In this document: positions 10,157 through 40,313 of the stretch, piece after piece
How the letters are laid out: every line of letters starts with the position of its first letter
Position numbering within the stretch: position 1 is the stretch's first letter
Origin: Dimorphilus gyrociliatus
Taxonomy: Eukaryota > Animalia > Annelida
Assembly: GCA_904063045.1 (NCBI GenBank)
Contig: CAJFCJ010000132.1
Location: 33,320-73,632, forward strand
Reading direction: 5' to 3'
Length of the DNA: 40,313 bases
Translations under genes and position numbers: made by a program
Notes under the pieces: generated by a model
Databases searched by the model: none
What the model was told of the DNA's origin: nothing
What the model saw: only the letters and a program-made list of their open reading frames with translations

Positions 10157-10494
10157 TTATCTTAGTATTCTCAAATTACAACATTTTTGTAGTATATTGT
10201 CAATATTTGTTGATTGATTTTCAGTTAGATAACAACAGACTAAACCAAGATATTTCAAAGTATTCCGTGATTGAATTAATCCATGACAAATTGATAATAT
10301 ACCATTTCCCATATTTCTATTACCAGTTAATTCTAGTATTTCTATACAGTAACAATTTTGCAGTAATTTTCTGATAAATATTGATTGATTTTCAGTTAAA
10401 TTACACCATCTAAACTGGATACTTGTTAAGTGATTTGATGATTGGACAAGTCCATCGCAAATATAGGATATACCATTTCCCATTTCCTTATTAG
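10157..10494 (-). pseudogene. RI-type LRR fragment truncated 5' by an LTR-like repeat
   Basis: NKEMGNGISYICDGLVQSSNHLTSIQFRWCNLTENQS...ELTGNRNMGNGILSICHGL... It begins exactly where homology to LTR-like family B ends. Confidence 0.8.
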
Positions 10495-10835
10495 TCACAA
10501 CGAACGCAATTCTGGCAAAAATTTATCAAGGAACCGCCAGTATTTCGTGCAAAGAGTATGTATTGAGCATAATGAGTTTTAGTTCTAAACAAACAAGTTT
10601 AAACAACTAGCTAACAGTTAAAACTGAACTGACGAACTGAGGAAATGCATTTCCTTTTATACATTTACCAAAGCTTGGGTTTAATTGTTCAAAGGATCGC
10701 AAAGTTGAAATGTAATGATCTTACAAAGAACGTACAACAAAGGTATGAAAAACAGTTATATCATATAGGTTATGCATGCGATACTTCGAAAACAAGCCTT
10801 AGTTTTCAGCATCTGTTATTGAATAAGATGTAACA
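10495..10835 (-). repeat. Solo-LTR-like repeat, family B (5' part)
   Basis: Starts TGTTACATCTTA on the minus strand. Near-identical over about 150 nt to 19255-19410; contains CCCAAGCTTTGG and a TATAAAA box. Confidence 0.6.
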
Positions 10836-13800: not shown

Positions 13801-15357
13801 TATTAAATAACCTTGACATTGATTCACATCAATTATCTATTTGCAACTTTTGTTATATTAGAGATACAATTTATAATATGTTAATCAAACTCTAAAAATT
13901 TCTCTATTATGCCAATTTTACATTTTTCATTCTTTCAATCTTCCCCTGAAACTGAAGATTTACAAAGAAGCGAATCATATACTGCTGCTATCTTCACCCT
14001 TTCTAATTCAATTTCTTTATGAATGTTATATTAGATAAATAACTTCTAGACAAAGAAAGAATTAGATCTATTTCAAGTTAATTTTCACAAAAATCTTTGA
14101 GTCTAACTGTTGAATTTTGTTGGATTTTCTTTTTAATAAAATTATCCAAAGCATGCAAATCATTTACTAAATGATAAGTCAGAAAATGCCAAATTTATAG
14201 TTTTTCAGAGGGAAATATTTCCACTACCAACAGAAATTTTACTTTCATTTTTCTAATATCATAATCATAAACATTACAATAATCTTCATTTCTAGGCCAA
14301 TAAACGCAAATGAAAAGACTGTTTCTAACGTCTGATGTAACCAACGGATTTTCTATGGCCAAAATTTGCTTGATAGATATATAAGAATCTGTTCAATATT
14401 AATGATATACAACATTTACAGCAAGGTTAAGGCCATCTGTGTAAGAAAACAAACAAATATGGAATGTTTATACTATAGTATCTGAAACAATAAACAGAAA
14501 TATCAGTTTTCCCAACTTTTCTCTTTGAGCATTTAACAACCTGGGAAATCTACTCACAAAGTACAATTTTAGTTAATGATTATGATTAAGTTGCTATAGA
14601 CACAAATCCTGCATGGAATTCTCTTGACAATACATACAAGATTGCAGTTTCAGGTTTACATCGCATTGATATATCTGTTGGAACATGGCCAGGAATACAA
14701 TCTATTGTAGTTGTATTTGTAAATAATACACAAAAGTTATCAATGCAAACAATGTGGACTAGAAGCAGGATTTTGAAAGTGTGAGTAGAGGTGGACTGGG
14801 ACAAGACATAATCTTTATAATAGGCTTCATCACCATCTCGAAATCAATCAGTGTATTGCTCCTCCTCGACTGATTAAAGCATTTGCAAGTTACAACAGTA
14901 CTGCTTCTACTATTGGTTTTCAAACCATTATAGTTATTTGTCAAGTCTGATTGATGTTTTTATTCGATTAAGGAGAGTTTAACGTCAACTTCTCCATTAA
15001 AATTTAGTATTACAGTGTGTTGACAGATTTCTAAATTAACTATAAAAGACATATTTGCAAACTTTAAAAGACCAAGAAGAAAAGGGCAAATTAGAATGAT
15101 AAAATAATAGAAGGGCAATTTTTTTTGAAGGCAATAGAATCTTTTGCCAATAAGAAATAAAGGAATAACAGAATTGGCAAAGAAACAAAGAACATTGAAA
15201 AAAATGCTTCATTTCACAATACAATATAAAAAAAAACACAAATTAGTCATGTGACCCTTAATTTAAAACTGTTTTCCGGTATAAAATGTTATGTAATAAT
15301 CTGTTATCTTCAAAGGAATATTTGTCAATCTAGGTGAACTACTGTTAATTTTTATAT

Positions 15358-16130
15358 TCAATCTGTTTTCAGTTTGAAAAAACTAAAACACTTTGTCCAA
15401 CAGAAAACAAAAACCTTTTTCATTAAGCAAATAATTAAGAAACATAGAATTGCTAAAATTAGATATAAATCTATATTATAAAGTTTACAGGTTGGCATAT
15501 CCATTGCAGAATGTCTTAAATGACTACTACCAAACTTTAATACATGATTAATCCAATATACAGCTTTATCTAATGGTTTTGGTTCGAGTGATTTGACACT
15601 CTCTTTGCTGATTTTATATACTTATCATCATTCACCATTTTAGCTATGTATTCTTTGAGGAATGTCGTATCTTTTGTGTGAAAAGGTAAAATTTCCAACA
15701 TTCCATATCTTTTCAAATGAACTGAATTGTCCATAGCATCTGCAGGGAGTGGAATACTCAAAACTGGAGCTCCATGATACATAGATTCATAAATGGAATT
15801 GAGACCGCCACGAGATATAAATAGAATACAATTTTCTTTAGCTAGAAGACAGGTTTGAGCAATCTATTTAAAAGTATGAATATTTGGATAACCTTGTTCT
15901 AATTTGCATTTTAATGACCAAATCCATTGAATATTTGAAAATTGAATAAAAATTTTGTGAAAATTCTGCAAAAATTTTGGATGACTGCAAAAATCTAAAG
16001 AATTTCCAAAAGCAATTATACCAAATCTGCAAAATTAACATTTAAATTAAATATTTAACCAAAGTGTCTATTTACTTTTTAGATGAAATTTCATCAAATA
16101 TTGGATCAATACTTGTCATATTTATTGGTT
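15358..16130 (-). pseudogene. UDP-glucuronosyltransferase (UGT) C-terminal half, disabled
   Basis: UGT signature *IAQTCLLAKENCILFISRGGLNSIYESMYHGAPVLSIPLPADAMDN, with the W of WxPQ as TAG (15864-15866) and the H of HGG as R. After a frameshift: DKAVYWINHVLKFGSSHLRH, a TM segment (LYLILAILCFLIICLM) and a C-terminal KLKTD* (KxKxx ER-retrieval). Cut upstream by an LTR-B fragment. Confidence 0.9.
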
Positions 16131-16132
16131 GA

Positions 16133-16336
16133 GATGCTAAAATTTCCAAAGCTTGGGTTCAAGTGGTCAAAGGATTACAAAGTTGAAATCTGACAGTCTC
16201 ATAATTCTCATGTAACAAAAATATGAAAGACATTTTAGGACAAAGAAAAGTTGTAAATATGATCATGTTTTTATTGTTTTCCTCTTCTAAACAATAGTTG
16301 AATTTTGAAGGTTGGAGAGTTGCATAAGATGTAACA
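16133..16336 (-). repeat. Solo-LTR-like repeat, family B (5' fragment)
   Basis: Starts TGTTACATCTTA on the minus strand; matches the 10.5 and 19.4 kb copies up to CCCAAGCTTTGG. Confidence 0.55.
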
Positions 16337-16919
16337 ATTTTAGTAATAAATTGTAATATTAATGCTAGGTTGGAAATAGCAAATATTCTTTATATAATTT
16401 AATAGGTTTTATTCCTGTGTAATGTGTATGCACTGCCCTACTCGAAACTAGGTCACTACTGCTTATCTTTATCAGTGCTATCTGCATAGTACAATACTGG
16501 TTCAATACTACTTCTCTATTGTAGAATATAGCTGATGAATGTATGTGTACAGACAGGCTTTTTATATAGAGCACCTAAACTATTAACCCTGAACCTTTCA
16601 AATTCTCACAATTCAAAGGACTATTTATAAAAACCAGTTACCAGTCAGCCTATTTCTATTTCGAAATTTATTATTCTTTAATACTGTGGATTGAACTAAA
16701 ATCATATAATACAACCCATTTAATAGACTATTTTTAGCAGATAAAACCAGTTTTTTGGGTGTACAACGCTGAAATATTTGTAGACACCTCTATTTGTTAA
16801 TCTGAACTTGAGGTAGATTATAAAACTTTCTATATCTAATGTTTGTAATAAAATAAAGCATATTTGTAATTGTTATCTTTTATCATGTTTTTTTGCAGTA
16901 AATTGTCATAAAACCTAAG

Positions 16920-17866
16920 ATGGATGAATTAGACCTTAAAAAGGCTATGCAATTCTTAATAAGTCCAAAAAATTCTGTTCAAGAAGTTTCAAGTTTTTAT
17001 GAATCATGTGCTGGTATTTATGAAAATGTAAGTAATATTAAATGTAGAAATGTTATATTTTGTATTTATTTTGCTGTCCATATCAATTACTTTAACAAAT
17101 ATAAAATCTTTTATTCCAGTTGACAGAAACCCTGTTCTTTCCTGTTGAAGTTTGTGTACAGACAGCCATTAAATATAATAGTGACAGGAACTGTGTTATA
17201 GTTGATGCTTGTTCTGGAACAGGTCGAGTTGGCAGAGAGGTAAATTATTGATCTGTAATAATGTAATAATACAGTGTACAATATTTTATTTACTTTAATT
17301 ATTGTATCTTTTTGAAGTTGCTTAACCAAAATTATAAGAATGTTGATGCTATTGAACCTTCAAAAAGTATGATTGAAAATGGATTTAAAGGCTATAGAAA
17401 TATCTTTCAAAAATTTATAACAGAAGAGCCCATCAATGAAATTAAAGCCAGTTTAGAAATTTTATTTGATCTCTTTTAAGAAAAATGACTTTTAATAATT
17501 TTTTTTCTTTAGACACCTATGATCTATGTACAATGCTTGGAGGACTGGCTTATGGTCATTTTCCACCTAATGGGTTTGATGAGATTGTAAGGATCGTTAA
17601 AAAAGGTTAATCTAACAATATTCAATATTGTTTATATAAGGGTAGATTTAAAAAAAATACATATTGCTTTTTTGATGAAGGTGGTTTTGCTGTGATAGCA
17701 AATACTTATTTTTACCTAGAAAAATTCACCTGAATATTGGGATGGAATTCAAGAAAAGTTGAAACAATTGGCAAAGGATGGTTTTATTGAAGAAAAAGAG
17801 CGTCAAATTATAGATTACTTGGATGATGATAAACAAGTATTGCTACTTGTATTTAAAGTTATTTAA
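16920..17866 (+). CDS. Class I SAM methyltransferase, METTL27/WBSCR27-like; 5 exons, one +1 frameshift
   Basis: Exons 16920-17027, 17120-17239, 17318-17450, 17513-17605 and 17681-17866, all GT-AG with consistent phases. Motifs IVDACSGTGRVGRE, NVDAIEPSKSM and TYDLCTMLGGLAYGHFPP..EIVRIVKKGG. One extra A in the run 17720-17724 breaks exon 5; corrected length about 212 aa. Confidence 0.85.
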
Positions 17867-18820
17867 AAGATACAGTTGATACTGATACTGTTTGTAGACA
17901 TAAAGAGAACATCAGTATCAATTTATAATTCATCTAACAATTAAAATGCACAGTTTCTTAGAATTATACAATGTTTAAATGATGAAAGGGAAAAAAGGAA
18001 TGGAAAATTAATGCAATAGATAAAACCTCATTGGCACTATAAATCCAAAAGAATAATATCTAGATGACTGATAATCTTTAAAACTTTAATATCCTAACAA
18101 ATATTTTATTGGTTTAATTATTAAAATAAAATATATTCAGTTGTATTGTACAAGTTTTTTTTATATTTGATGCTTATACTATACTAATATATACCACTTA
18201 TCTATGTACAGGCTTAGGAAAGGTTTGCAAAAGGTTTGTTTTTGATTAAATCAAAAAAGAGAAACAGAATTCTCACACATCAAGAGTCCAAATGATTTTG
18301 GGAGCGGTCAAAGAAAAAATACACCAAAATCAACATTTAAAACAATATTCAAAAGAAAAATTTTTTCTGAAATTTTTTATGATTTCCTACCCACAACCTA
18401 CATGGTTTCGTCCTCTCTCTGTATTTTGAAATCTGGGACTCTTCAGGGTCTATTATAATTAACATACAAATTGTTAGAGGTTTGAGAATTTTACTGAAAA
18501 AAATTCTCTTCAGATATAAAATGTTTTATTTATTGATAGAGATTCTTATGTGTTAGTGTATAAAATATTTTTACCTTTTGGAAGTAGAAAAGTAAAAAAA
18601 GTGTATCATTTTAACACAATTGAAAGTTCTAAAATGGTTCCACCTTTAATTGATTTCATTCATCCTGAGTATTAGGTCAGATAAATTTAGATGGTCAGTT
18701 TTTTTTGTAAGATGTAACAATTTTGGTAACATTCAATTTAACCATTGAAAGTGATAAATTGGAACTGGTCCAAAAGTCAACAATAGTTGAAGTTTAACCT
18801 TTTGATACTCTTTAGCTGGT

Positions 18821-18886
18821 GGCTAAATAAATGTTCTTAAGTGTTTTGGAAGTAGAAAAGTAAGGCTAAATAAATGTTCTTAAGTG
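18821..18886. repeat. 23-bp direct duplication flanking a 20-bp copy of nearby sequence
   Basis: ggctaaataaatgttcttaagtg at 18821-18843 and 18864-18886. The insert ttttggaagtagaaaagtaa is identical to 18576-18595. Confidence 0.8.
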
Positions 18887-19090
18887 ATTAAATTAAGACT
18901 AATATAGATCTATAGTTAATGCTAAATTCGTTGCATTTGTTTGCAAGAATTTTATATGCCCATGTGCATACCTGCATCACCTCATATATGTATAATAGAA
19001 TTGTACATGTTAGAATGGAAGAAATCTATATTTGTTAAATCTTTTTCTAACATTCATTTAGTTGATACCAGAAAGTTTGCTTTTGGTTAA

Positions 19091-19480
19091 TGTACTGCCT
19101 TGTACTGTAATTGTAGGAATCTTGAGTTCGTTACGATTGAATTCGTCCTCACCAATCATTTACCAATAAACCAAAGTACTGGTCCAAATAGAACCTTTCA
19201 AGTTCATCCCACAGGTAGTCTCAACAAACTCAATTCCAGCAAAAATTAATCAATGAACTGCCAGTATTTCGTGCAAAGAGTATGTATTGAGTATAATGAG
19301 TTTTAGTTCTAAACAAGCAAGTTCAAACAACAAGCTAACAATTAAAACTGAACTGACGAACTGAGGAAATGCATTTCCTTTTATACATTTACCAAAGCTT
19401 GGGTTCACTTGGTCAAAAGATTATGAAGTTGAAATGTAACAGTCTCATAATGCACACATAACAAAGACATGAAAAACTAT
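19091..19480 (-). repeat. Solo-LTR-like repeat, family B (3' part)
   Basis: Shares sequence with 10495-10750 and ends GGCAGTACA on the minus strand. The composite of copies has TG...CA termini. Confidence 0.6.
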
Positions 19481-19500: not shown

Positions 19501-20051
19501 TGTTGTACTGCTCTTGCTGGCAAAATCTATGTGTTTGCAAGTTATAACAATACTGGTTCTACTCGAACCTTTAAACAAATGTTTAAATTAAAACGGTTTA
19601 TTCGCAATAATAATACTTAAGCAAGTAACAATATGAGAGTTTGATAGCAGAGTAGATAGTTCGTAAAAGCAGGTTGCCAAATTACCAAACTGTCTTCCAA
19701 TGTTGAGGAGTAGATGGATGGTTCCAGTGGAGGTTGTTTCCAGGTGATTTTCCCAGGTCCTTGGGTCCAGATGGAAGCTCCATGCCAAATGAGAATAGTG
19801 AGGATTTATATACTTTGAGGTTTGCCTCTGACATCCAATCATCACTTTACATTTGCCAAAATGTGTAGTTCATATTTATCCATATTAGTAACATCCTGTT
19901 ACTAGGTTCAACATTTAGGAAGGTTAATTGAATTATAACTTGGCCACACCCTAGGCAAGTTAATTAAATTATAACTTGGCCAAACCTTTATTGGTAATTA
20001 AAGATGAGCCTTCAAGCTGACTAATCAGACTTATGTTTGCCCAATGTTATA
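19501..20051 (-). repeat. LTR-like repeat, family A (copy 1)
   Basis: Inverted, highly similar copy of 35821-36335. Has an internal tandem duplication (ggccaagttataatt), reverse CCAAT, TATATAAA and AATAAA; termini TATAACA...ACAACA. Confidence 0.75.
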
Positions 20052-20089
20052 GTAAAAATAAAAACACAAGTAAAAATTGAGAACATTTG

Positions 20090-22360
20090 TTATTCTTTTT
20101 TTATCATGCTTAAGTCACAAACTATTTCTGTTGAATATATTGGTGAACATTGTTTAATTACAGCTAATTCTCCCATCTGACTACTGTGCATTCCCAACTC
20201 ATTTGTTAACACTGTGGTCAATTGAGGATCCAAATTTGCCAGTAATGCCACCATCCTGCTTCTTTGAACAAATTGATTGCAGAGAAGACTTGACAGCTGT
20301 TGGGTAAACTTTTTTAAATTCTTAAAATTTGAATCAATGCCATGTAGTAAGGTAGATGTTTGGGCAGCTTCTCTCATTTCCAGTGGGAATTTGTGGTATG
20401 GGTTTTTACTTATATTATGTTTCAGTTTTGCTTCCTTCTTCATCTGCTTTTTAGCCATTCGCATGTGTAGAGTAAAATAAATTCCTTCATGGGTAATCTT
20501 AAATTCTCTGGCTGGTGGTCCTTTATACCATATGCCCAATGTTGGTAAAACCTTCTGTTTGATTCTTTTCTCACTGTATACATATTTTGAAATCGTAACA
20601 GATTGTCTTGTTGCCCTTGTCCAATTGACTGCTTGCAGCATTTCTTGGATATAATAGTTATCCAGCTCCCAGTAAGATGGACTAATGGGTTGTTGTAGAT
20701 GATATATCACAACTTCCTTGAGTGTGCCTTTATTTCTCATTAGTTTATACTTTGTGTTTGTTTCTCTATACCATTGGTTAAGACTTGGTAAGGGGCTGTT
20801 TCTCTTGTATAGTATAATTTGTTCTTTCACTTTTTTGGGATAGTTTAATAGTCATTTTTCTTCATTTTTTCCAATCTTTTGATTTTGTAGCAAATTGTAT
20901 AGGTGTTCCTTGCCTGTTTCGTGTATTAAACTCTGTTTCTCCAGTGGTACTAGCACTTTTGTTCCAGGGCCACCAATTCCATCAATGAATTTGTCTTGAT
21001 AAGGGATGTCCAGAATAGAATACCCTGGACAAGAATAGTGACCAGCAAATTTCATACAACTAATTCTGTTGCTAATTTTTATCCATGGTGATTGTTGCCC
21101 AAGTGTGTAATTATTCTTGAGGTTTCTAAAGACAATAATTGCCTCTTCTGTCTCACAATAGGACTGCCCTGGTAAACAATCTTCCAGGTAGTCCAGATTA
21201 GTTGTAATTTTCATATTAGGAGGCTGCCAATATGTTTTGCCAAACTGGATAATTGTGGTGTATTCCAGCACCTTGGTAGTTGTTGGCCATGTGTAGGCAG
21301 CAGGAAACTGATCTTGGTGGATCCAAGTGTTTCTTTTCACCATTAAAGGTTTTCCTTGAAAAGATTGTTTATCTTTTACCATCTGTCTGCATTGATCATG
21401 AGTTACTTTAATAACTGAGTTAACAATTCTCCTCTTCTTCACTCCAAAGAAATAGTAAGTGTAAAAGTTAGTTCTTAGATACACTTGACATTTTACTGCT
21501 CTTGTTTCAATTTCTTCCAAGTTCAATTCATAGATATCAGCTGTAATTGTCTTGGTTTCTTGTGATTCTATATTACAAGTTGGCTCATCTGCTAGATCAA
21601 ATGCTTGGCTTGGTAGTTGGTTAGAACAAAAGTATAATGGTGGTTTAAATGTTAAGGTAATGTTTGCACTTGTAACATGTGCACCTTGGTAGGATGGTTT
21701 TGGAACTGTTATTGAGTGGATGCAGCCACAGATCACCATTACAGTCATCACTAGTGGAAGCCACAACATCTGTTTCATGTTAGCTCTTCCTGTGTTGGCT
21801 ATAGTTGAATGGTTGAAAATTTTGTGTTGTTGTTCCACTCTGATAGTTATTCCATCTTCTAACTCCATATATTGTGTTTTCACTTCTTGTTGGGAATCTA
21901 ATTGTTCAGAGATGATTTTAGTCTCATCTAGAAATATGACTGATTCATTGTCTGTGTCACTTGTATTTTCTTTCTCATCTTGGGATGAATCTACCACTAT
22001 GATGGACTCATTATCTGAATGGGTTATGTCAATAATTTCACCTTCAATAATTGTTGACTCATTATCAGAATGGGTTATATCAATAATTTCACTTTCAATA
22101 ATTATTGACTCATTGTCTGAACTAGGTATTTCATCTTCTCTATCAGAGATAATGTTTGCCTCTGAATATGTATTTTGATCCAGTTCATTATTTGTTTCTG
22201 GGTCATCACTTTCAGATGAGCTTGAGGGTTCATTGAGACTGTAATTACTGTCTGTTTCAAAAGTATTGCTTGTGTCATAACCAGTATCAGAATTAGTAAC
22301 TTCCATCTCTGAGTCATCACTGTCTGAACATTCTGATGAAGAGTCATACTGTCCCATCAT
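20090..22360 (-). CDS. env: Acidic spacer + internal signal/TM + class III fusion glycoprotein ectodomain (gB/chuvirus G-like), one in-frame stop
   Basis: ORFs 20852-22360 and 20090-20830 are in the same frame, separated by one TGA. Hydrophobic MLWLPLVMTVMVICGCIHS, then a Cys-patterned ectodomain with AVKC..TNFYTYYFFG..VTHDQC, and LCNQ..LDP..GELAVIKQCSP. Confidence 0.8.
21923..22123 (-). repeat. 51-bp coding tandem repeat (SDNESxIIExEIIDITH), SIM-like array
   Basis: Units 22004-22054 and 22055-22105 plus a partial 22106-22123, followed by SDNESIIVVD and DNESVIFLDE. Confidence 0.85.
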
Positions 22361-22362
22361 AG

Positions 22363-22770
22363 CTATAGTGACTTGTTTAGTTGAGGTTGCCTTATTCTTT
22401 CAGCCAGGTTCCCTTTATTTCTATCAAATTTGCGAGAACACTGTTTAGCTTCAAAATTGAGGTTTGCTCCCACAGTTTGTAGGAAATCACAACCAAGTAT
22501 TATTGCCATGTGTAGATTTTCCATAACAATAAATTCTTGTTCCATACTTTCTCCAGCAAATTGGATATTCAGCTTTATGCTTTCTTTTTACTTTAAAGCT
22601 TTCCCATCAGCTGAAGTTATAATTGGTAAGCCAATTGTTTCTTTATCCATAATTGTAACATCCATTAACTTGATTTCTTTTTCAGTAATAAAGGATCTCA
22701 ATGCTCCTGTGTCACACAAGGCAATGACTTCTCTGCCTTTGTGATTCTTCAAATGGAATTGGAAGTCATT
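22363..22770 (-). CDS. Second retropepsin-type aspartic protease, C-terminal to integrase (one in-frame TAA)
   Basis: VIALCDTGALRSFI (DTGA at 22702-22713), TSADGKALK*KESIKLNIQF...FIVMENLHMAIILGCDFLQTVGANLNF. The two ORFs (ending 22588, starting 22545) are 42 nt apart in the same frame. Confidence 0.85.
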
Positions 22771-22874
22771 TCTTCCTTCTACCTGAGAAAGATATTGGAG
22801 GTGTGTTATTTCCTTCTCCACAAGGTGAAAGATTGTTGTTGTTTCTTTCCCTGTTTCCAACTTATTAGATTCAT

Positions 22875-24204
22875 TGGCTAGTCTTAATCTGCTACCATGT
22901 ACAAACTTACATGTATTATCATCCATTTGTATTTCATATATCCACTTTTGATGATTGACTTTTGTTATTTGGTATGGGCCTAACCATTTTAAAGAAGGCA
23001 TTTTTGTTATTGCAATTCTTGCACCATCATTTCTTAAGAATATTTCATCATCAACCTCAAAATATTTTGGAAGATTGAGATTTCTATTCTTTCTTTCCCT
23101 ATATTGTTCTTTTGCCATGATGGATTTACAGAAGGCTGTAGCTCTTAACTGTACCAATTGCTGCTGGTGATTGAATACAAATAGTATGTTTGTTTCAGGA
23201 GAGGTAGTATGCATTGTTACATCAATCAGTGTTCTTGTGCTGGTGCCAAAAAGAAGTTCCTGTGGTGGTAGTCTTGTACTTCCTACAGGTGATTGATTCA
23301 GAAATGCTTGAATCAAGGGTAGGTTTGCAACCCAGTTATGCTGATTTTCTTCCACCACTAATTTATTGATTTCCTTCCTCTCTTCTCTATTTCTTCTTTC
23401 AACTAGTCCATTGCTCTGGCTTCTATAAGCTGTTGTTTGGATTTTCTCAATACCTAATACCTCCATAAACTCTTTAAAAGCTCTACCAACAGAGTTTCTT
23501 CCTTGATCTGTCAACATTTGTTTTGGAATTCCAAAAATGGGAAAAAATCTGTTGAAAAGACGATTTGCAATTTCTTTACTGGTTTGCTGTTTGAGTGCAT
23601 TTAAAACTGTGTATCTACTGAAATGATCCACTATCACAAGTATGAATCTGTATGACTTAACCATGGGTAAGGGTCCAATTATATCCATGGCCACCAACTC
23701 CATTGGTGATGCAGGGTGAAAGGTTTCTACCAAAGGGTATACTCTACTCCTACCATTCATTTGTTCACACAAAGTGCAATCCTTTATTGAATTCTCAATC
23801 ATAATATTTAATTTTGGGTGCCCAAAGGTCTTTGTAATTATTTGTAATGTCATTCTGGGTCCATGGTGATTGTGAATTTTATTTTTATGGAATTTAGGGA
23901 GCAGAGTTAGCATCAAATGGTCAGGTAAAACCAGAATGTTTCTTTTTTCAAGGATAATCCAGATCATTTCCATGTGAACAAACATCTCCATTATGAAAGG
24001 TGTAAAAGTTCCAAAATAAGGAATAGGTAGCTGACCATCCAGTGTTAAATATTCTTTAATTGATTTCAAATTCACATCTTTTTCTTGCTCTGACAGTAAG
24101 TCAACAGAAGACAAATCAATTTTCTCTTCACTGTTATCACTGGTAGCTACAAAAGTTAGATCTGGTGTATGTTCATACTGTTCCATTTTAACTGAAATAG
24201 AGGG
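22875..24204 (-). CDS. pol: Gypsy integrase (HHCC, DDE, GPY)
   Basis: FHKNKIHNHHG...DCTLCEQ; VAMDIIGP, LTDQGRN, GLVERRN; WLGPYQI; VHGSRLR. Confidence 0.95.
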
Positions 24205-24216
24205 AGAAGGGATCCA

Positions 24217-24277
24217 GACAGTTGACCCCCGGACAGTTGACACCCTTGAGGACAGTTGACCCCCTTTAGGACAGTTT
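24217..24277 (+). repeat. MULE left terminal subrepeat array (GACAGTTGACCCCC x3 + partial)
   Basis: Copies at 24217, 24232, 24251 and a partial copy at 24270. Confidence 0.9.
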
Positions 24278-24756
24278 ATTTATATTAACATTGTTTAGAT
24301 GTATTGTTATAATTAAGATTGTAAAAAAGTTAATTTTCAAGGAAAATTTCATATAATCAATTTATTAGTTTTTTTTTAAATTTTTTACACTGAATAAGAA
24401 AAATAAAAAAATCATTTAAAATTTTCAATTTTCAATTTCTCTCCATTTTCTAGATTGAAGAGAAATCTTCAGAGAAGAAGGCAGTAAAATTTACTTCCTT
24501 TTTAAATATCACTCAATTTGAGGTAAGTCACTTTAGTATTTATTTTTGATTTTTTGTGATTAATTAAATTGTTAATATTATATTGTATATTATATATAAA
24601 TGTAAAATGTTATAATACTGATTTTGACAACATTTTGTTGAAATTGTTGGTAAATATTGAATTTTTTCATGTTTTTCATTTGTCTACATAATCAGCATAG
24701 ATATATTCTTCATTTAAAATATTAGAAGGGAATTTTGATACATTTCTATCCAACAA

Positions 24757-26952
24757 ATGGCTTCCAAATGCTTATACTGCAAACAAATGATTTTTTCAAA
24801 CCAAATGAATAAGACATGTTGTTTATGTAAACATGTTTTTCATGAGGACTGCCTCAAAGGTCTGTATTATTGTATCCACTAATTCATATAACTCAGTTTC
24901 TAAAATAAAGGCCAACACTATTGCAATATTTGCAAAAACATAAAAACAACAACATGCCAGATTCAGTTAGCTCAAATGTCCAAGCACTTTATGGTACAAA
25001 ATGCCAATCAGCTTGTAGTAGAAAAAATACAAGTTCAATCTGAATTGAAAAATGAAAAGAAGCTAGAAAATGGTAATGAACTGGAAAATGGCAATGAACT
25101 GGAAAATAGCAATGAACTGGCAAATGGCAATGAACTGGAAAATGGTAATGAACTTCAAATAAGAACAATGGACTTTAAACAAAATGAAATAACTGATATA
25201 GAATCTTCTGGAATTGAAAATTCAACTGACACCTGTTCAAATAAACAACAATTTGATAATCAAGAGGTTAGTGTTTTAGAATGACATTTAATTTATTATT
25301 GTTTAAAATTTGAAATTTAACATTTAGCTTGAGCTTTCATTTGATTTTTCACATGAAAGTTCAATAGATGCTGAAGAATCATCTGATGACAATTATGAGC
25401 CAAAGAATCTCACAAATTCTATCAATGTTTCTGATGAAAGTTCTTTTGAGGTGACACCCAGTCAATCAACAAAACAGTCAGAAAAGCAAGGCTTTGAAAT
25501 TATCAAAGAAGGATCAAGAAGAGGCAAAGATCTATTGACAAAAAATGGCTTTACTTTTGCAGTGAAGAAGAAATCTGACAGACAAACAACTTGGTGCTGT
25601 AGTAAAAGAACAGGAAAGTACAAATGTCCAGCCATTGTTCTACAAAAAGGATCACATTTTTTAGAAAAAGGGCAACATTCACATCCAAAAACAAGTGCCA
25701 ATGAAGTTGAAGCACAAATGAGAAAAGTTGTAAAAGCAGAGATTCAACAAAATTTCAATAACTCAGGAAAAAAATTGCAGAGATTACTCTTTTGAAATTT
25801 TTAGATCAAAGTAAGAAACTTCCACTTATTGAAAGCATGAGAAGAACAGCAGACAGATACAAAGGAAAATTGAGACCTAGCAATCCAGCTGATCTTTCAT
25901 TTACTTTGAACAATGATTTTGTTCCTGAAAATCTTTTAATAAAGGATATTAAAAAGGATGATGCAAGATATATCATTTTTGGTAATAATCATCAAATCGA
26001 ATTGTTGAAACAAGCAAAAATATTATTTATGGATGGAACCTTCAAAGTGATTTCAGGACCATTTCAACAGCTTTTCACAGTTCATGCTTTCATAAAGAAA
26101 AATGGAAATTATAAGCAAGTTCCTCTAGTTTATGCTTTTATGAGCCAAAGAAAGAAAAAATCTTATAAAGCTGTTTTCAAGGTAAATATATATATATATC
26201 ACATTTTCATGAATTACACTACATATATTTCAGGTGTTAGCTGATGTTTTAGATGGTCATCAACCAAAAAAAATAGTAGTTGACTTTGAGGCAGCCTTAT
26301 GGAAGGCCATTGAAGAAATGTTTCCAACAACAACGATTCAAGGATGTGTTTATCATTTTAAAAATGCAGTTTTTAAGAAAATACAAGTATTCATTATATA
26401 AATAGTCATTTGAGAAATACAAAAGTTTTTTATTTATTGAAGCATCTTGGATATGTAAAAGATTATAAAGAAAAAAATTATGGAGGTGAAATGCTTAGAA
26501 AAATAATGTGTTTACCATTCTTACCTGCTAACATCATTAAAAGACAATTCAAAACTATTAAAGGAGAACTTGTTGAGAAAAATTTATTTCTGGATTTTTT
26601 GGATTATTTTGAAAGAATCTTTATTAGAAATAATATTTGGAAAATAAATAATTGGTCAATCTACCAAGTGACCATCAGAACCAACAATGATGTAGAATGC
26701 TGGCATCATAGACTAAACAGTCACTGTGGACAAAGCATTAATTTTTACAATTTAATTTTGAAGTTAAATCATGAATCAAAGGTTGTTGCCCTTTATGAAA
26801 GGTTGTTGTCAGAGAAAAAGATATGTAGGATACAGAAAGTGAAATACAAGGAATTGCAAGGTAAAATATGTTTAGTTTGGGAAGAATTTGCAAATGCTGA
26901 TAAAACAGCTGATGATGTATTAAGAGAAATTTCCAACTTGTATTTTCCATAA
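24757..26952 (+). CDS. MULE transposase, about 658 aa: PHD finger, low-complexity linker, FLYWCH, DDE; 4 introns, one 1-nt deletion
   Basis: Exons 24757-24859, 24911-25266, 25328-26181, 26234-26386 and 26443-26952 (GT-AG introns of 51, 61, 52, 56 nt). MASKCLYC..TCCLCKHVFHEDCLKGQHYCNIC; WCCSKR..KCPA..HSHP; FMDGTF, VVDFE, GCVYH, RTNNDVECWH. One missing A in an A7 run near 25768-25774. Confidence 0.9.
25063..25152 (+). repeat. 18-bp coding tandem repeat x5 (LENGNE)
   Basis: ct(a/g)g(a/c)aaat(g/a)g(t/c)aatgaa units at 25063, 25081, 25099, 25117 and 25135. Confidence 0.95.
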
Positions 26953-27258
26953 TTTTTGAAATACAAATTTTGATGAATATGAAATTAATTATTTTAGTTT
27001 ATTTTATTATTATTAGTCTATTCTTCAAATTTCATTGTAAGATCAATGATTTATGATATGAGAGCTTGGTTTCTAAGCCATTTTTATCCAAAAATCTAAC
27101 AATTTTAAAAATGTATTTCAAACATTAATTAAAAGTAAGAGCTTATCAACTTTCAATTCTTTCAAAAAAGATGATTTTCATTGAAGTACACAATAACTTC
27201 ATGAGATTGACAGTTTTACAAGTCAAAATGCTCAACAGTCTAAGAATTAACCATCTTA

Positions 27259-27358
27259 GGGGTCAACTGTCCAGAGGGGGGTCAACTGTCCAGGGGTCAA
27301 CTGTCTGGATGGGGGTCAACTGTCCGGAAGGGGGTCAACTGTCTGGGGGTCAACTGTC
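27259..27358 (-). repeat. MULE right terminal subrepeat array (GGGGTCAACTGTC x6)
   Basis: Six copies separated by 1-5 nt spacers; reverse complement of the left array motif. Confidence 0.9.
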
Positions 27359-27370
27359 CTTTACCCTTCT

Positions 27371-29060
27371 AATCTTGTTAATGCATCTGCTCTATTTTTT
27401 CGTCCTGTCACATAGTTAATTGTAAATTTTAAATCCAATAAAGCCATGACCCATTTTGCTGTGCCAACATTCAATTTGTTTTGCTTAATGTTTGTACTAG
27501 ACTCTGATGGTCAGTATATAAAAAGAATGGCTTGTCTTGAAGGTAATGTAAAAATTTCTTTACAACCCAGTAAACACCAAATGCTTCCTTTTGATAGGCT
27601 GCATATTTCATTTGATTATTGTTGAATTGTTTTGAAGCATAGGCAATGGGTTTCATTGTTTTCTTCCCATTCTCATCTACATAAACTTGTTCAAGAACTC
27701 CTCCTACAGCTACATTCGATGCATCTGTTGTTAAGTGAAAATCTTTAGCAAAATCAGGTAGTTGTAATACAGGAGGGTTAACTACTGCATCTCTCAATTT
27801 GAAAAATGATTGCTTGGCTTCCTCAGTCCATTGCAATTTATCCTTTTTCCCATGTAGTTTCATTAACATATACAGAGGTTTAGCTACTCTTGCAAAATCT
27901 TGTATAAATTTTCTGTAATAGCCACAAAATGCAACAAAGCTTAGTAGTGAATTTGCAAACACTGGTGGCTGTAAATTATATAATTTATCTGTCTTGGACT
28001 TATCTGTTTCAATCCCCTTTTCTGATACAATGTGTCCCAAGAATTGAACTTGTTCTTTCAAAAACACACATTTACTTAGTTTAATCTTAAAATTGTACTT
28101 TTCAATCTGTTGAAGAATGGTCTCCAATGCTTCCCAATGTTGGTCCAGCAACTTGGTAAATATTATTATGTCATCAAGGTAGTTTAGGCACAAATGCTTT
28201 ACATCCTTTAGCACAAATGAATTCATTACATAACTAAAATGAGGAGGGGCATTCATTAATCCAAAAGGCATCTTAATAAATTCAAACAAGCCAAAAGGTG
28301 TAATAAATGCTGTTTTAGACCTATCTTCTTTCTTGATGTTAATGTGGTGGTATGCTCTTGTCAAATCCATTGTAGAAAAGAATTTATTTCCTCCTCCCAA
28401 ATGGTCAAAAAGATCATCTTGATTTGGCAGTGGATACTTGTTTTTAACTGTCACTTTGTTTAGTTTTCTATAATCTACACACATTCGTAGACTACCTTCC
28501 TTCTTTCTTACAAAAACAATTGATGAAGCCCAATTGCTTTTGCTTGGTTGAATAACTTTGCTTTTTACCAATTCAGCTATCTGTTGCTTACATTCTTCTT
28601 GTTTTTGAGGAGGCATTCTATATGGCCTTTGTCTATATGGTGTTGAACCTGGTTCAAGAGTTATTTCCAAGGGTGGTACCTCTGGATTGCCAATATCAAA
28701 TCTGTCTTCTGCAATAGTTTCTTTATATTTCACCAGAATTTGGGTAACTTTGTCCTTCATCTCAGGATTTTCTTGTTCAATTGTTGTCTGAAGGGTATGT
28801 ATTTGACTCTTGTTCTTTTTCATAATAAGAGGAACTGGGTAAAATCCTTTGAAAGATAAATGTTGTGTTCCAATAGGGTAATTCTTTTCTGTACCTGGCT
28901 GGAGTATAATCTGTCTCTTGCCAAAGTCAAGGGTAGCTCCATTTTGTTGTAGAAAGTCACACCCAATAATACATTGTTGTGTAATGATTTTGTTGATCAG
29001 AAAGCGTTGTTTAATAATCTTTTTGGTTTGGTCATAGGTAAAAGCCAAATTAGTGGGCAA
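27371..29060 (-). CDS. pol: Gypsy pol: protease C-half, reverse transcriptase, RNaseH
   Basis: CIIGCDFLQQNGATLDF; LRMCVDYRKLN, FSTMDLTRAYH, MPFGLMNAP, YLDDII; TTDASNVAVGGVL, KEAFGV, YTDH. After a frameshift near 27475: AKWVMALLDLKFTINYVTGRKNRADALTRLE. The catalytic DTG half of this protease was not found. Confidence 0.95.
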
Positions 29061-29289: not shown

Positions 29290-29700
29290 AGAAGGTAAAT
29301 GGCAGAAAAAATAGGGTTAGGTTTAGGTTAGGTTTTGTTAGGTCTTGGGGTTAGGGATTGGCACAGTCAGTACAGACTGGTAATCCCAAAAGTGCACTCA
29401 CACTTATAACCAAGATTTGGCTAAGGGTTGGTGTAGCTGAAATCAAGTGAGTAGAAAGGCCACAGTATGATCACCACCAGACAGATAATTGACAGGCTTG
29501 ATGTACCCACAGGTTGAATATAAGTGTCTTCCACTTGTGAGTTGACAAATAAAATTATCAAAATTTTCAAACTGCTCCAATCTCTATGAAATTTGGTACA
29601 GAGTTAGTCCCAATACGAACGAATCTCTGTACAAAATTTGAGCCAAATCGGCCCAACCGTTTAGGAGCTATGATGGTTTGAAAAAGACGTAGTTCCTAAG
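29290..29700. mobile_element. Possible non-autonomous (Helitron-like) element with TTAGG-rich patch and hairpin
   Basis: Degenerate ggttag repeats at about 29310-29355; 15-bp stem aaatttggtacagag (29589-29603) / ctctgtacaaaattt (29625-29639), followed by gagccaaatcggcccaaccgtttaggag. Ends not defined. Confidence 0.3.
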
Positions 29701-29703
29701 TGG

Positions 29704-30528
29704 TTGTTACACCTATTCCTGATATTCGGCAGCTGTAGCCTTAAGATCAGGTATTGTACACAACACAAATCTATTCAGATCATATGTGACTTGAACATTA
29801 TTGTGAAAGATGCTAAATGCTCAAAGCAACTATTGGCCAAGTATAAGGAGTTTATATTCTCAGTGCAGCCCATAACCCATCAGATATGTGAAATCAGCTT
29901 AAAAGATATAATATATGGCAAATGTAACACTGAACAAAATCTATTCAAGGTAAAAGATAATCCTTTGGATAGCCAGAGTAATAATGAACAGAAAATATTT
30001 ATTCATTATTCTACAAATGGATGCAAATTCAGGAAAGTTGCTGCTCAATCAATAAGATTAAAGATTTCTAATAACCTGGAAGAACCTCAATTAGACATTG
30101 AAAGACTTTCAGAACTTTTGAAATTAGGTATCAAAGAAGATGTCGGAAAAAAGGGTGTACAGCTACAGCAAGTATTGGATTATATGACAAATAAGCTTGA
30201 TCAACATTCAGATCAACTAAATTATGCAAAACAAATTGGCATTGACCCTGCAGTAACTAAATCTAGAAGATATTTTATGGCTTGGACAAAGAAACCACTA
30301 CAAACTATTATCAATTTCCTTATTCCTGCAACAACAACTGGTGCAATTGGAATGATATTGTATTGGATAAAGATGAAAGGATTACATAAAAATGTAACAC
30401 AAAGAATACTAAACAGATTCAGAAAAACAAATGACATCAAATCCATTGAGGAAGGCCAACCCTTAAGAGTTGTCAGCAGCAGGAAAGGTCAAGTTATTAT
30501 TGCCAATGTTGAACCATCAGTGGAATGA
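29704..30528 (+). CDS. env: C-terminal part of a related env-like glycoprotein (Cys-containing ectodomain end, TM, cytoplasmic tail)
   Basis: IRYCTQHKSIQIICDLNIIVKD aligns with IKQCSPIYSTEIVCDLSMIKKE at the truncated end of the minus-strand env. TM-like TIINFLIPATTTGAIGMILYWI, then a basic tail. Followed by a PPT and TGTACA. Confidence 0.7.
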   Translation: MLHLFLIFGSCSLKIRYCTQHKSIQIICDLNIIVKDAKCSKQLLAKYKEFIFSVQPITHQICEISLKDIIYGKCNTEQNLFKVKDNPLDSQSNNEQKIFIHYSTNGCKFRKVAAQSIRLKISNNLEEPQLDIERLSELLKLGIKEDVGKKGVQLQQVLDYMTNKLDQHSDQLNYAKQIGIDPAVTKSRRYFMAWTKKPLQTIINFLIPATTTGAIGMILYWIKMKGLHKNVTQRILNRFRKTNDIKSIEEGQPLRVVSSRKGQVIIANVEPSVE

Positions 30529-30716: not shown

Positions 30717-31602
30717 NNNNNNNNNNNNNNNNNNNNNNNNNNNNNNNNNNNNNNNNNNNNNNNNNNNNNNNNNNNNNNNNNNNNNNNNNNNNNNNNNNNN
30801 NNNNNNNNNNNNNNNNNNNNNNNNNNNNNNNNNNNNNNNNNNNNNNNNNNNNNNNNNNNNNNNNNNNNNNNNNNNNNNNNNNNNNNNNNNNNNNNNNNNN
30901 NNNNNNNNNNNNNNNNNNNNNNNNNNNNNNNNNNNNNNNNNNNNNNNNNNNNNNNNNNNNNNNNNNNNNNNNNNNNNNNNNNNNNNNNNNNNNNNNNNNN
31001 NNNNNNNNNNNNNNNNNNNNNNNNNNNNNNNNNNNNNNNNNNNNNNNNNNNNNNNNNNNNNNNNNNNNNNNNNNNNNNNNNNNNNNNNNNNNNNNNNNNN
31101 NNNNNNNNNNNNNNNNNNNNNNNNNNNNNNNNNNNNNNNNNNNNNNNNNNNNNNNNNNNNNNNNNNNNNNNNNNNNNNNNNNNNNNNNNNNNNNNNNNNN
31201 NNNNNNNNNNNNNNNNNNNNNNNNNNNNNNNNNNNNNNNNNNNNNNNNNNNNNNNNNNNNNNNNNNNNNNNNNNNNNNNNNNNNNNNNNNNNNNNNNNNN
31301 NNNNNNNNNNNNNNNNNNNNNNNNNNNNNNNNNNNNNNNNNNNNNNNNNNNNNNNNNNNNNNNNNNNNNNNNNNNNNNNNNNNNNNNNNNNNNNNNNNNN
31401 NNNNNNNNNNNNNNNNNNNNNNNNNNNNNNNNNNNNNNNNNNNNNNNNNNNNNNNNNNNNNNNNNNNNNNNNNNNNNNNNNNNNNNNNNNNNNNNNNNNN
31501 NNNNNNNNNNNNNNNNNNNNNNNNNNNNNNNNNNNNNNNNNNNNNNNNNNNNNNNNNNNNNNNNNNNNNNNNNNNNNNNNNNNNNNNNNNNNNNNNNNNN
31601 NN
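30717..31602. other. Assembly gap (886 N)
   Basis: Run of n. Confidence 1.
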
Positions 31603-31869: not shown

Positions 31870-32125
31870 AACCTTTTAACATGAGGGTTGAACCTAAATA
31901 ATTACTAAAGATAAATGTGACAATTTGTCAATTGTAAAGTGATGATTGGATATTAGAGGCAAACCTCAAAGTATCCAAACACTCACTAATCTTTCTAAAT
32001 CTAATTATTGTGGGAAGATCACCTGGAAACAATCTGAGATGAGATTAACCTTCTACACTCTATTGTTGGATTCTGTTTGCTAATTTGGCAACATGCTATT
32101 ATGAACTATCTACTTCGATATTAAA
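31870..32125 (+). repeat. Diverged partial copy of LTR family A
   Basis: tgtaaagtgatgattgga..agaggcaaacctcaaagtat, acctggaaacaa, taatttggcaac and gaactatctact match family A in order. Confidence 0.6.
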
Positions 32126-32411
32126 CTTAAATTAATTAAACATTATTAACAGCACAACTCAATCAAATGCTAGACAAGGGAGAAAGGTGAAGGATTTAAT
32201 TATCCAAAATCAAATGGGAAGTTGACTGATTAAGTTATACAGTACCAATACCCTATTTTTGGCCACTGCGCTTATTTCTATAATAATGAAGATTTTTTTT
32301 CTTGAACATTAATTTAACAATGCAATAATATGATATGGCAATTGTCACTTTGTAATCAATATAATCAACTAATTAAATTTTTTTTTTCACTCTTTTAATA
32401 ATAAACTTTGC

Positions 32412-35040
32412 TTATTCATCATTCTGTCTACATTTATATAGATTAATTGTTTTTAAAGTGTTTGAGGAGGATTTGAGTCCTTCGCAAATCATTTTAAATC
32501 CTTTTTCCATTTTAGAATTTTTAGACAAGTCAACATCTTCCAACACAGAACAAGATTGAAAAGCTTCTCCTAGAGAATTCGCCTGATTTTCATTCAAGTC
32601 ACAACATTTTATTTTAACATATTTTAAAGATAACTTTGAAGAGCTGAATCCTTTGCAAATACTTTTCATTCCAGCATTTCCCATCATTAGATTGTTGGAA
32701 AGGTCAATTTGTTTCAATGATGAACATTTTTTAAATGCTATTCCTAAAAAGTCTGCTTGTTTTTCACTCAAATTACAATTTGATAGGAAAATTTGCTTAA
32801 GAGTGTTTGAAGATGATTTCAATCCTTGACAAATCTTTTCAAATCCATCATCCTCCATTTTAGAATTATAAGACAAATCTACTATTTCCAAAAAACAACA
32901 TTCTTTAAGAGCTTCTCCAAGATGTTCTGCTTGGAGATAATTCAATTCACATTTGCTTGCATCTATTTTCGTCAGACTGAAAGATGACAATGTGAGTCCT
33001 TTGCAAATTGTATTAAATTTAAGTCCAACTTTACCATTACTAGAGAGATCAACATTTTCCAAAAAATAACAGTTTTGAAATGTTTCTCCTAGAGATTTTG
33101 CTTGTTTAGAATTAATGTTGCATTTAGCTATAGTTATATGCTTTAAAGTGTTTGAAGATGACTTCAATCCTTGATAAATCTTTTCAAATCCTTCATCCTC
33201 CATTTTAGAATTATATGATAAATAAACATTTTCCAATGAAAAACAGGTTTGAAATGCTTCTCCTAAACTTATAGCTTGTTTCTTATTCAATTGACATGAA
33301 ACTAAATTAATATGTTTTAAACTATGATATAAGCATTTTAATCCCTTGACAAAGCATTTTAAATCCTTTTTCTCCCATTTTAAAGTTTTTGGATAAGACA
33401 ACTTTTTCCATTGATGAATATTGTTGAAGCATTTCTCCTAGACATTGTGCTTGTTCATCATCCAATTTACATGAAGTTAAATTTATAGCTTTTAATGTTT
33501 TCAATGCATAAAATTCTTTACAAATCATTTGAAATCCATTTCCCATTTCAGAATTGCAAGATAAGTTAAGATATTCCAAACTAGAACACTTCTTTAATGC
33601 CTTTGCCAAAAATATTGACTTGACATCATTTATATTATACTGTGATAATTGAATTTCTTTCAACGTTTGAGAAGATGTTAAAAGTCCTTCACAAATTATT
33701 TCAAATCCATCATCCTCTATTTCAGAATTTCTGGAAAAATCAAATTTTTCTAATAAACAACAAACTTTTAATGTTTGTTCTAAATATTTTGCCAATGTAT
33801 TATCCAATCCACAGTGATTTATGTCAATTTCTTTTAGAGTGTTATTTGAAAGTTTGTGTCCTTCAAAAATTTTTTCAAATTCCTTTTCCATTTTGAAATT
33901 TCCAGAGAAGTCAACATATTCTAAAGAAGTACATTTACAAAATGTCTTTCCTAATTCAATTGCTTGGTGTTGCTTTATGTTTGCTTTGTGATACATTAAT
34001 ACTACTAAAATTTTCATTTGCAGATTGGAGATTTTTAAATATCATTTGTGATCCATTGTCACCCATTTTATAATTTCTAGATAAATCAACTTTTTCTAAT
34101 GAAGTAAGTTCTTTAAATGTAGTTGCTAAAAATTCAGCTTGTTCACCATTCAGGTTGCATTGTCTGATAGATATATATTTTAAATGGTCTGAAGAAGATT
34201 TTAATCCTTTACAAATGCTTTTAAATCCATTTCTCATATTTGAATTGTATGATTAATCAACATTTTCCAAAAAATTACAATGTTGAAATAGCTGTCCAAT
34301 ATAATCTGCTTGCTGATGATTTAAAATATAATTGTCTAAATTGATTGATTTTAAAGTATTAGTAAATGTAACAGTTCCTTCAGGAAAGTATCTTTTACAG
34401 TTAGATAGTGAAATTATTTGTATAGATTTACAATTTTGGAAAATGTTGTGAGCATGTTCATAAAATTTTTCATAACAAGAATGTTGATTAATATCAAAAT
34501 TTTGAATTTTTTCATAAGTTAACTCTAGTATTTTAAAACATAGACTTTCAAAATCTTTTTCACTTTTTACTTGAAATAAAACCATTGGAATATTTGTAAT
34601 TTGAATGATATCATTGGCCAATGCCCATTTTATTACATTTAAACTCTCTAAATTAAGTTCCTTTAATTTATTTTCTTCAGGAACAACTCTAATATTTGTT
34701 GATGAAATTAATTGTATCATCAAAAAGTATAGTGACTACTCTTTATTATAATCTTTGTGAGCTTTTTTGAATGAAGAGAAAGCTGTTCAAATAAGAGGCT
34801 AATCTTAACTTGTGTATTATCAAGATGTACTTCTTCCAAAAACTCTCCTTTCTTCTCAATTAACAATTTTACTATAGTATCATTTAAATTTTCAATAGTC
34901 AATTCAAGTACTTTTTCATCTGAATTAGAAGATAACTTATTTTTAACAGTTTGACTACAATCAAACATATTTCTAACAGTTTCAGAAGAAAAAATAACAT
35001 TTTCAAAGACATTTTGGGACAGGTTGAAAACAGCCGTAAA
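32412..35040 (-). pseudogene. Long RI-type (NLR-like) LRR gene broken into five ORFs
   Basis: ORFs 34720-34968, 34253-34723, 33956-34237, 33322-34017 and 32412-33401 are collinear. More than 20 repeats of type LExVDLSxNSKM..GFExICxGLKSSSNT / LKxIxLxxCNL..QA..LG. Pre-LRR region TAVFNLSQNVFEN at about 35000-35040; no NACHT motif seen. Confidence 0.85.
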
Positions 35041-35551: not shown

Positions 35552-35820
35552 ATATCCATATATATAAAAATACTCATCACAAATTCTGTTTATGATTTAG
35601 TCAAAAAAAAAAACCTTTATAAATCTTTTGTTAAGAACAGCATTATAGTTCCATTATTGGAAGCCAATAATGGCAAAAAGACAAGGCAGTGCACTATGAA
35701 TATCATGATAGCACAAATAATAAAGACCATTGTACAACTCTGGTTATATTTAACATGGTTGAACTGTATTATTTGATGCAACTTATACATGTACATCTTA
35801 AAACCTACGCAAGAAAATGC

Positions 35821-36335
35821 TATAACATTGGCCAAACATAAGTCTGATTAGTCAGCTTGAAAGCTTATCTTTAATTACCAATAAAGGTTTGGCCAAGTTA
35901 TAATTTAATTAACTTGCCTAGGCTGTGGCCAAGTTATAATTCAATTAACCTTCCTAAATGTTCAACCTTGTAACATCCTCTTACTAAACATAAATATGAA
36001 CTACACATTTCAGCAACTGTAAAGTGATGATTGGATGTCAGAGGCAAACCTCAAAGTATATAAATCCTCACTATTCTCATTCTGCATGCAGCTTCCATCT
36101 GGACACAAGGACCTGTGAAGATAACCTGGAAACAACCTCCACTGGAATCATCCATCTATTCCTCAACATTGGAAGACAGTTTGATAATTTGGCAACCTGC
36201 TATCTACTCTGCTATAGAACCTTCATATTGTTACTTGCTTAAGTATTATTATTGCGAATAAACCGTTTTAATTTAAACATTTGTATTGATATAACTTGCA
36301 AACGCATAGATTTTGCCAGCAAGAGCAGTACAAGA
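35821..36335 (+). repeat. LTR-like repeat, family A (copy 2)
   Basis: Matches the reverse complement of 19501-20051 apart from small indels; AATAAA at 36257-36262. Confidence 0.75.
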
Positions 36336-36473
36336 TGTATTTAGTTAAAATGAAGAGAGTTATATTTGCTCCTTCATTTGAAGCAACTCATGTTAAAATG
36401 TGAAAAAAACAAGACAAATGAAGTGAACAATTCTAAAAACCACAAAATATTTCAAACTTGAATAAATCATACA

Positions 36474-40244: not shown

Positions 40245-40313
40245 CTTTTTTTTTGTTTTTTAAAAAAAAATAAATACAACTCTATTCCTTTTTATATAAA
40301 ACACTTATTTTAC

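Follow-up and report, generated by a model that had tools for sequence, protein, structure and literature searches.

The locus described here, on a contig of Dimorphilus gyrociliatus, raises the question of whether a class III viral fusogen serves as the env of a Ty3/gypsy element and, if so, whether that element stands for a lineage of its own. The window, that is the whole stretch of 40,313 nucleotides that was analysed, is AT-rich (30 % GC) and eukaryotic in make-up, with leucine-rich repeat (LRR) genes. We are confident that it holds a Ty3/gypsy LTR retrotransposon, decayed and truncated twice, in which env is predicted to encode a class III (gB/G-type) fold and a second retropepsin lies between integrase and env, the element being likely a member of Dingle or of the gB-type errantiviruses, or a close relative (Table 1).

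Organization and decay of the element

The domains of the element follow one another on the minus strand in the order protease, reverse transcriptase (RT), RNase H, integrase, protease, acidic spacer, signal, ectodomain and LTR. The part coding for the protease remnant, RT and RNase H reads from 29023 to 27471. The element is truncated at about 29023, where contigs from public runs show loose ends, and both gag and the 5' LTR are absent. In addition, a MULE transposon has split the element, stops interrupt it, and a deletion on its 3' side has taken the last ~250 residues of Env including the membrane anchor. The copy in the window is dead and yields no working product; the family itself need not be dead.

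Table 1 Features of the retroelement and related pieces in the window
Feature	Position	Strand	Basis
3' LTR without its first ~90 nt	19504..20052	-	533 of 569 aligned positions shared with the copy at 35820-36338; terminus GTACA
Deletion junction, env truncated and fused to LTR	20052..20066	-	contigs of all 4 runs have loose ends at 20066; relatives extend ~250 residues with membrane anchor
env, predicted class III fusogen ectodomain, broken	20093..21778	-	stop 20852-20854; frame break near 20096
Candidate gB-type central helix/domain IV junction motif	20141..20281	-	C-x15-LDP-x17-GE-x6-C-x-P
Likely fusion loop 2 (YTWP)	21284..21295	-	W-P in 7 of 7 covering relatives; aligned to YHW of rabies G
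Likely fusion loop 1 (YYFF)	21446..21457	-	hairpin tip in model; aligned to FVGY of rabies G
Putative Env signal peptide or signal anchor	21700..21778	-	hydropathy up to 2.07
Acidic Ser/Thr-rich spacer, in frame with env	21800..22360	-	27 % D/E, 26 % S/T; 51-nt repeat
Second retropepsin (DTGA ... ILGCDFL)	22420..22779	-	in frame behind integrase; interrupted by one stop (22588-22590)
Integrase (H2C2 zinc finger, core, C-terminal GPY motif)	22880..24208	-	PF17921, PF00665; sequence
MULE DNA transposon between RNase H and integrase	24209..27365	+	FLYWCH E 2.8e-8, MULE E 0.0013; inverted ends
Protease-1 C-terminal remnant, RT and RNase H	27366..29023	-	RVT_1, RT_RNaseH_2, RT_RNaseH (Pfam); RVP remnant E 0.057
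C-terminal fragment of a related, older env	29674..30528	+	identity of 37-42 % with P0068 and P0069 across ~210 residues
Diverged LTR piece	31902..32127	+	70 % identical to element LTR
Solo-LTR-like copy	35731..36332	+	start inferred; 94 % identical to element LTR over aligned bases

When the contigs of four public runs (X1-X4) were compared with the window (40 of 91 rows listed), they were found to differ from it at the env stop and at the env frame break in all four runs. At the frame break between protease and spacer they differ in three runs, and in the fourth the contig ends there. The stop within the second protease (22588-22590) is not among the 40 of 91 comparison rows listed. Contigs leave the window at 29023 and 20066, so other copies continue where this one is truncated; deep contigs lack most of its breaks, and no whole copy was seen among them. 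Element contigs reached depths of 15,000-19,000 against 110-180 for neighbouring single pieces in X1, and 680-1,000 against 8-27 in X3. Such depths are consistent with a family of many copies, depth being no copy count.

The MULE has short inverted ends with internal repeats, and its transposase lies in three pieces (FLYWCH, MULE and tail). A target-site repeat was looked for and none was found. Contigs bridge the MULE, joining 24208 to 27366, in two of the four runs. Contigs in two of the four runs also join 22347 to 28458, an internally deleted derivative that links RT to the spacer.

LTR evidence within the window consists of one partial LTR and the solo-like copy, around which no target-site repeat was found. 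In contigs of the public runs the LTR extends past 20052, and the primer site lies past its other end; it is seen only there, in a public-run contig. No tRNA gene is present in the window.

Env as a class III fusogen

Env was read from two minus-strand open frames (22399-20852 and 20851-20090) with one stop between them. The sequence features of the original prediction are in place. Its signal or transmembrane-like segment appears as 19-residue hydrophobic windows starting at 21775-21754 (peak 2.07), and its motif C..T..YYFFG.K..VT.DQC is present, with YYFF at 21457-21446 on the tip of a predicted beta hairpin. The aromatic pair at the YYFF position and the W-P of the second loop are conserved in all seven relatives that cover those columns. 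The two loops align with the FVGY and YHW segments of rabies G, which we take to be the rabies fusion loops.

By sequence, the window Env alone found no fusogen in Pfam, PDB or the atlas, and word-index protein searches with the Env protein and with its alignment found none either. An HMMER scan among 1.84 billion proteins gave 10 unnamed relatives (21-70 % identical). When the 12 members of the Env alignment were compared with Pfam, two matched PF00974, the rhabdovirus fusion domain (best 2.1e-5), and there was one weak match to herpes gB (E 0.022). The family profile, searched against PDB, matched four glycoprotein sequences (E 2e-4 to 5e-4), among which one is labelled rabies G.

The AlphaFold model of Env had a mean pLDDT of 59 and a pTM of 0.42, with confident residues at ~75-287, poor ones at 460-563, and a pLDDT under 50 in the helix region. 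In this model the predicted fusion domain, an elongated beta structure, is nested in a PH-like domain and carries hydrophobic loops at its tip. All 36 listed rows of a Foldseek search against PDB were herpes gB (best E 5.5e-9), with whole-chain TM-scores of only ~0.2. The best E-value in a viral structure library was 3.5e-11 (Foldseek); since the matches there are a mix of rhabdovirus, chu-like, xinmovirus and herpes proteins, no donor stands out. A structural search of 48,161 chains without Foldseek returned ten chains with Z of at least 5, all of them class III fusogens. HSV-1 gB was the best (Z 9.8, rmsd 6.6, 193 aligned), and the first unrelated chain followed at Z 4.0. The model of the relative P0071 gave the same ten top kinds, and matched gB domain IV at Z 4.2 only.

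Assignment of the predicted Env fusion domain to class III is well supported, and the fusogen identity proposed originally is borne out by its match to both herpes gB and rhabdovirus G. With the viral class III fusogens (herpes gB, rhabdovirus G, thogotovirus Gp and baculovirus GP64) Env shares the fold of fusion and PH-like domains (Z 5.3-9.8). However, identity to them is 5-14 %, and in the window Env ~130 residues are inserted ahead of the central helix.

In the case of the central helix, the likeness to gB is suggestive at the level of sequence. The motif C-x15-LDP-x17-GE-x6-C-x-P occurs exactly as predicted at 20281-20141 and is the single match of a relaxed pattern in the six frames of the window. 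HSV-1 gB has C-x15-LNP-x17-GD-x6-C-x-P, and a gB chain in PDB reads C-x15-INP-x17-GD-x6-C-x-P; the spacing of the window motif equals that of herpes gB. A profile of the C-terminal half gave three matches in PDB, all of them gB and all on the central helix, at E-values (0.4-0.52) that are weak alone.

The tetrapeptide RATR, proposed as a minimal furin site, is present at 20617-20606 and is the sole R-x-x-R in the 769-codon frame. Its reading as a furin site is unsupported and was rejected, because RATR lies inside the ~130-residue insert, which P0070-P0072 lack, and P0069 has the insert without any R-x-x-R. A chuvirus-type env was also considered and rejected: PF24664 was unmatched in the 12 alignment members, and comparison of the profile with the chuvirus-type env of another element (locus L001) gave a probability of 2.9. 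At the position of the deleted anchor, hydrophobic segments are found in the relatives P0068, P0069, P0071 and P0076. The cluster of P0076 comprises full-length, 631-residue Env relatives on contigs of 7-9.5 kb from public assemblies.

A second retropepsin and an acidic spacer

The integrase frame continues into a second retropepsin, which was missed in the original prediction. This domain matched three Pfam families above their cut-offs: RVP with 28.9 bits (cut-off 20.7), RVP_2 with 27.1 (20.3) and gag-asp_proteas with 28.3 (28.2). It is followed by the acidic spacer (~190 residues), and in the window the protease frame and the frame of spacer and env overlap by ~30 nt. One 3,128-nt contig of run X3 links integrase to the second protease and reaches the spacer, and overlapping contigs continue into env. 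As a single contig spans all three, their order is a property of the family and not only of the window locus.

The extra protease is the only part of the element that may be new. Among the 66 long pol proteins, 23 match the second protease, always shortly before RT (the order was judged against RT only). A query of integrase and protease found no related locus in metagenomes, and an RT query found three distant loci (29-41 %), none with a protease match behind integrase. Viral contigs contained no related locus, and no relative sharing the whole domain order was found among metagenomes, viral contigs and the 66 long pol proteins. Among the papers listed in literature searches, judged partly from titles and the starts of abstracts, no report of a second protease in LTR elements was found; the figure of Dingle's domains or the figure supplements to PMC13524379 may show one. 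In the main text of PMC13524379 a protease is named once, at the usual place.

It is quite possible that the second protease is a functionless relic of an old internal duplication. The remnant of the first protease matches it better (40 % over 35 residues, 33.5 bits) than does any protease of the 66 other pol proteins (best 27.7 bits), a likeness that is a weak sign of such a duplication. The window copy has a stop within the domain. In addition, the main contig of X3 skips 60 nt (22625-22684; 20 codons) inside it, and this loss in the main contig of one of four runs argues that the second protease is dispensable. Read on the opposite strand from the element, this piece is bounded by GT..AG, which points to a deletion or an antisense intron. 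However, contigs of two other runs (X2 and X4) cover this stretch without a gap. The catalytic DTG and the C-terminal GCDF motif have also been kept, although the two proteases are only ~40 % identical, and the duplication would therefore have to be old. Should the domain prove to be a relic, the finding would be an ordinary one.

Expression of Env

In unbroken copies, Gag-Pol would be expected to package the RNA and copy it from a tRNA primer. Judging from the analogy with class III fusogens, Env would probably form membrane trimers, insert its two aromatic loops into the target membrane and refold around the central helix, and particles would pass between cells.

For the second protease, a tentative scheme is that one reading frame runs through Pol, second protease, spacer and Env, and that the protease might free integrase from a membrane-bound Env precursor. 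The break between protease and spacer looks private to the window copy, and elsewhere in the family Pol and Env may therefore be read through as a single chain. Env within a polyprotein does occur, as in the Gag-Env-Pol element at L001, whose class III Env shares a single frame with Gag and Pol. There (L001:403-9957) one frame of 3,184 codons holds Gag, a chuvirus-type class III Env (PF24664, E 1e-90), protease, RT, RNase H and integrase. That frame also has a further C-terminal region with hydrophobic ends, and a 607-codon frame without a Pfam match follows it.

Another serious possibility is a separate Env mRNA, spliced or subgenomic, with the acidic spacer serving as a long leader in the cytosol; the second protease would then be only the tail of Pol. 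The env of Drosophila gypsy is spliced. In the window element, Met codons lie in the frame of spacer and env at about 22360 and at the signal, and in the available parts of PMC13524379 gB-type ectodomains are flanked by two membrane segments. Against a separate mRNA, the two frames overlap by so short a stretch, and the break between them looks private (three of four runs differ, and the contig ends in the fourth).

A separate spliced env RNA and a functionless relic are each as likely as release by the second protease. The complete proposal, a Ty3/gypsy family in which two working proteases flank RT-RNase H-integrase, Pol and class III Env form one polyprotein and the second protease releases integrase from the membrane-bound Env precursor, is doubtful. 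If the second protease does work, it would offer another way to couple envelope production to Pol, departing from the one-protease plan of LTR elements, and the family would be a test case for how a captured fusogen is fitted into retrotransposon expression.

Relation to known elements

The pairing of a gB-type env with a Ty3/gypsy element had been taken as unreported, and class III env as occurring mainly on BEL/Pao elements. The first view is overtaken by publications. In the available parts of PMC13524379 (Chary and Hayashi), gB-type env and its F-type counterpart are equally abundant and widespread on Ty3/gypsy elements of many animal phyla. Dingle, as far as the accessible text of PMC7854359 goes, is a Ty3/gypsy family with a gB-like env in D. 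gyrociliatus itself, a genome whose DNA transposons are Mariner and MULE. The element is already described as to its kind and probably as to its family, and the window env is one further case of a published group.

A Ty3/gypsy pol adjoining a gB-like env, which marks a gB-type errantivirus in the accessible text of PMC13524379, is what the window contains. The HSV/gB-type errantiviruses presented there share with the window element the Ty3/gypsy pol, the order of pol and env, the gB-like ectodomain, the signal segment and the aromatic fusion loops; the furin site is likewise not always kept, and there are many copies. The window element differs from them, to the extent of that text, in its second retropepsin and the acidic spacer between integrase and env, and in that the window copy is broken.

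When compared with Dingle and Dgyr_errantivirus_1 (PMC7854359; PMC13524379 supplement 1, both in their accessible parts), the window element shares a gB-like env behind integrase and the presence of MULE elements in the genome. Its primer site is the same 12 nt as in Dgyr_errantivirus_1, but these occur 26 times in the PMC13524379 table of about 1,500 elements. The LTR of ~638 nt, a length that rests on an inferred start, compares with 631 and 636 nt in the Dimorphilus element of the same table. A chromodomain is reported for the Dimorphilus element, using HHpred, in the available text of PMC13524379. Behind the window integrase no Pfam match to a chromodomain was found, and a five-segment chromodomain profile scored below shuffles. 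On balance, the element probably belongs to Dingle or to a close sister family.

The original prediction, in which a class III fusogen was independently captured in an event not reported before and founded a new Metaviridae lineage, is, by comparison, unlikely. It would suit an env so remote from named proteins, with ten unnamed relatives among 1.84 billion, and without a match to the chuvirus-type Pfam family that L001 matches at E 1e-90. The lack of a chromodomain, unlike in the published Dimorphilus element, would suit it too. However, the structure matches single out no donor, and the two papers, in their accessible parts, record Ty3/gypsy elements with a gB-type env from many animal phyla and in the case of Dingle. 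The primer site and the LTR length moreover fit the published Dimorphilus element as tabulated there.

The placement of pol in Ty3/gypsy rather than BEL/Pao is supported. Its Pfam set is of the Ty3/gypsy type and its best PDB match is the Ty3 RT (E 6e-79). All 66 long pol matches carry RVT_1, nearly all together with RNase H families of the Ty3/gypsy type. The order protease-RT-RNase H-integrase with Ty3/gypsy-type domains was observed, plus the extra protease behind integrase. No Pao-type RNase H, protease or integrase-tail domain, the families that we take to mark BEL/Pao, was found at E up to 1 in the Pfam scan of the window. Tas is a BEL/Pao element with a gB- or chuvirus-like glycoprotein. 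Anakin is described as another in the accessible part of 10.1101/2020.02.15.950899. Such elements likewise have a class III env on an LTR element, but the window pol is of the Ty3/gypsy type and its env has no PF24664 match. That the glycoprotein is a separate viral or BEL/Pao insertion lying by chance beside a Gypsy pol is extremely improbable and close to refuted already: the region is a nest of insertions (MULE, a second env fragment and LTR pieces), but integrase and env lie on the same strand in continuous contigs of similar depth, followed by the LTR, and the Pfam scan gave no BEL/Pao family.

Other features of the window

The plus-strand pieces at 29674-30528 and 31902-32127 are what is left of another, older family that carried env, and an N gap (30717-31602) separates them. 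A dispersed repeat of ~260 nt (87 % between copies) occurs at 10492-10753, 16143-16231 and 19216-19477, and one copy adjoins the element LTR. A frame at 2288-2620 resembles, by eye, the end of a Mariner transposase (Pfam gave no match). A host frame at 39475-40281 has an F5/8 type C (discoidin-like) domain with an E-value of 1.8e-4, below the Pfam cut-off. Host genes with long runs of leucine-rich repeats of 57-58 residues form several clusters, at 7120-8553, 10157-10522 and 32412-34735.
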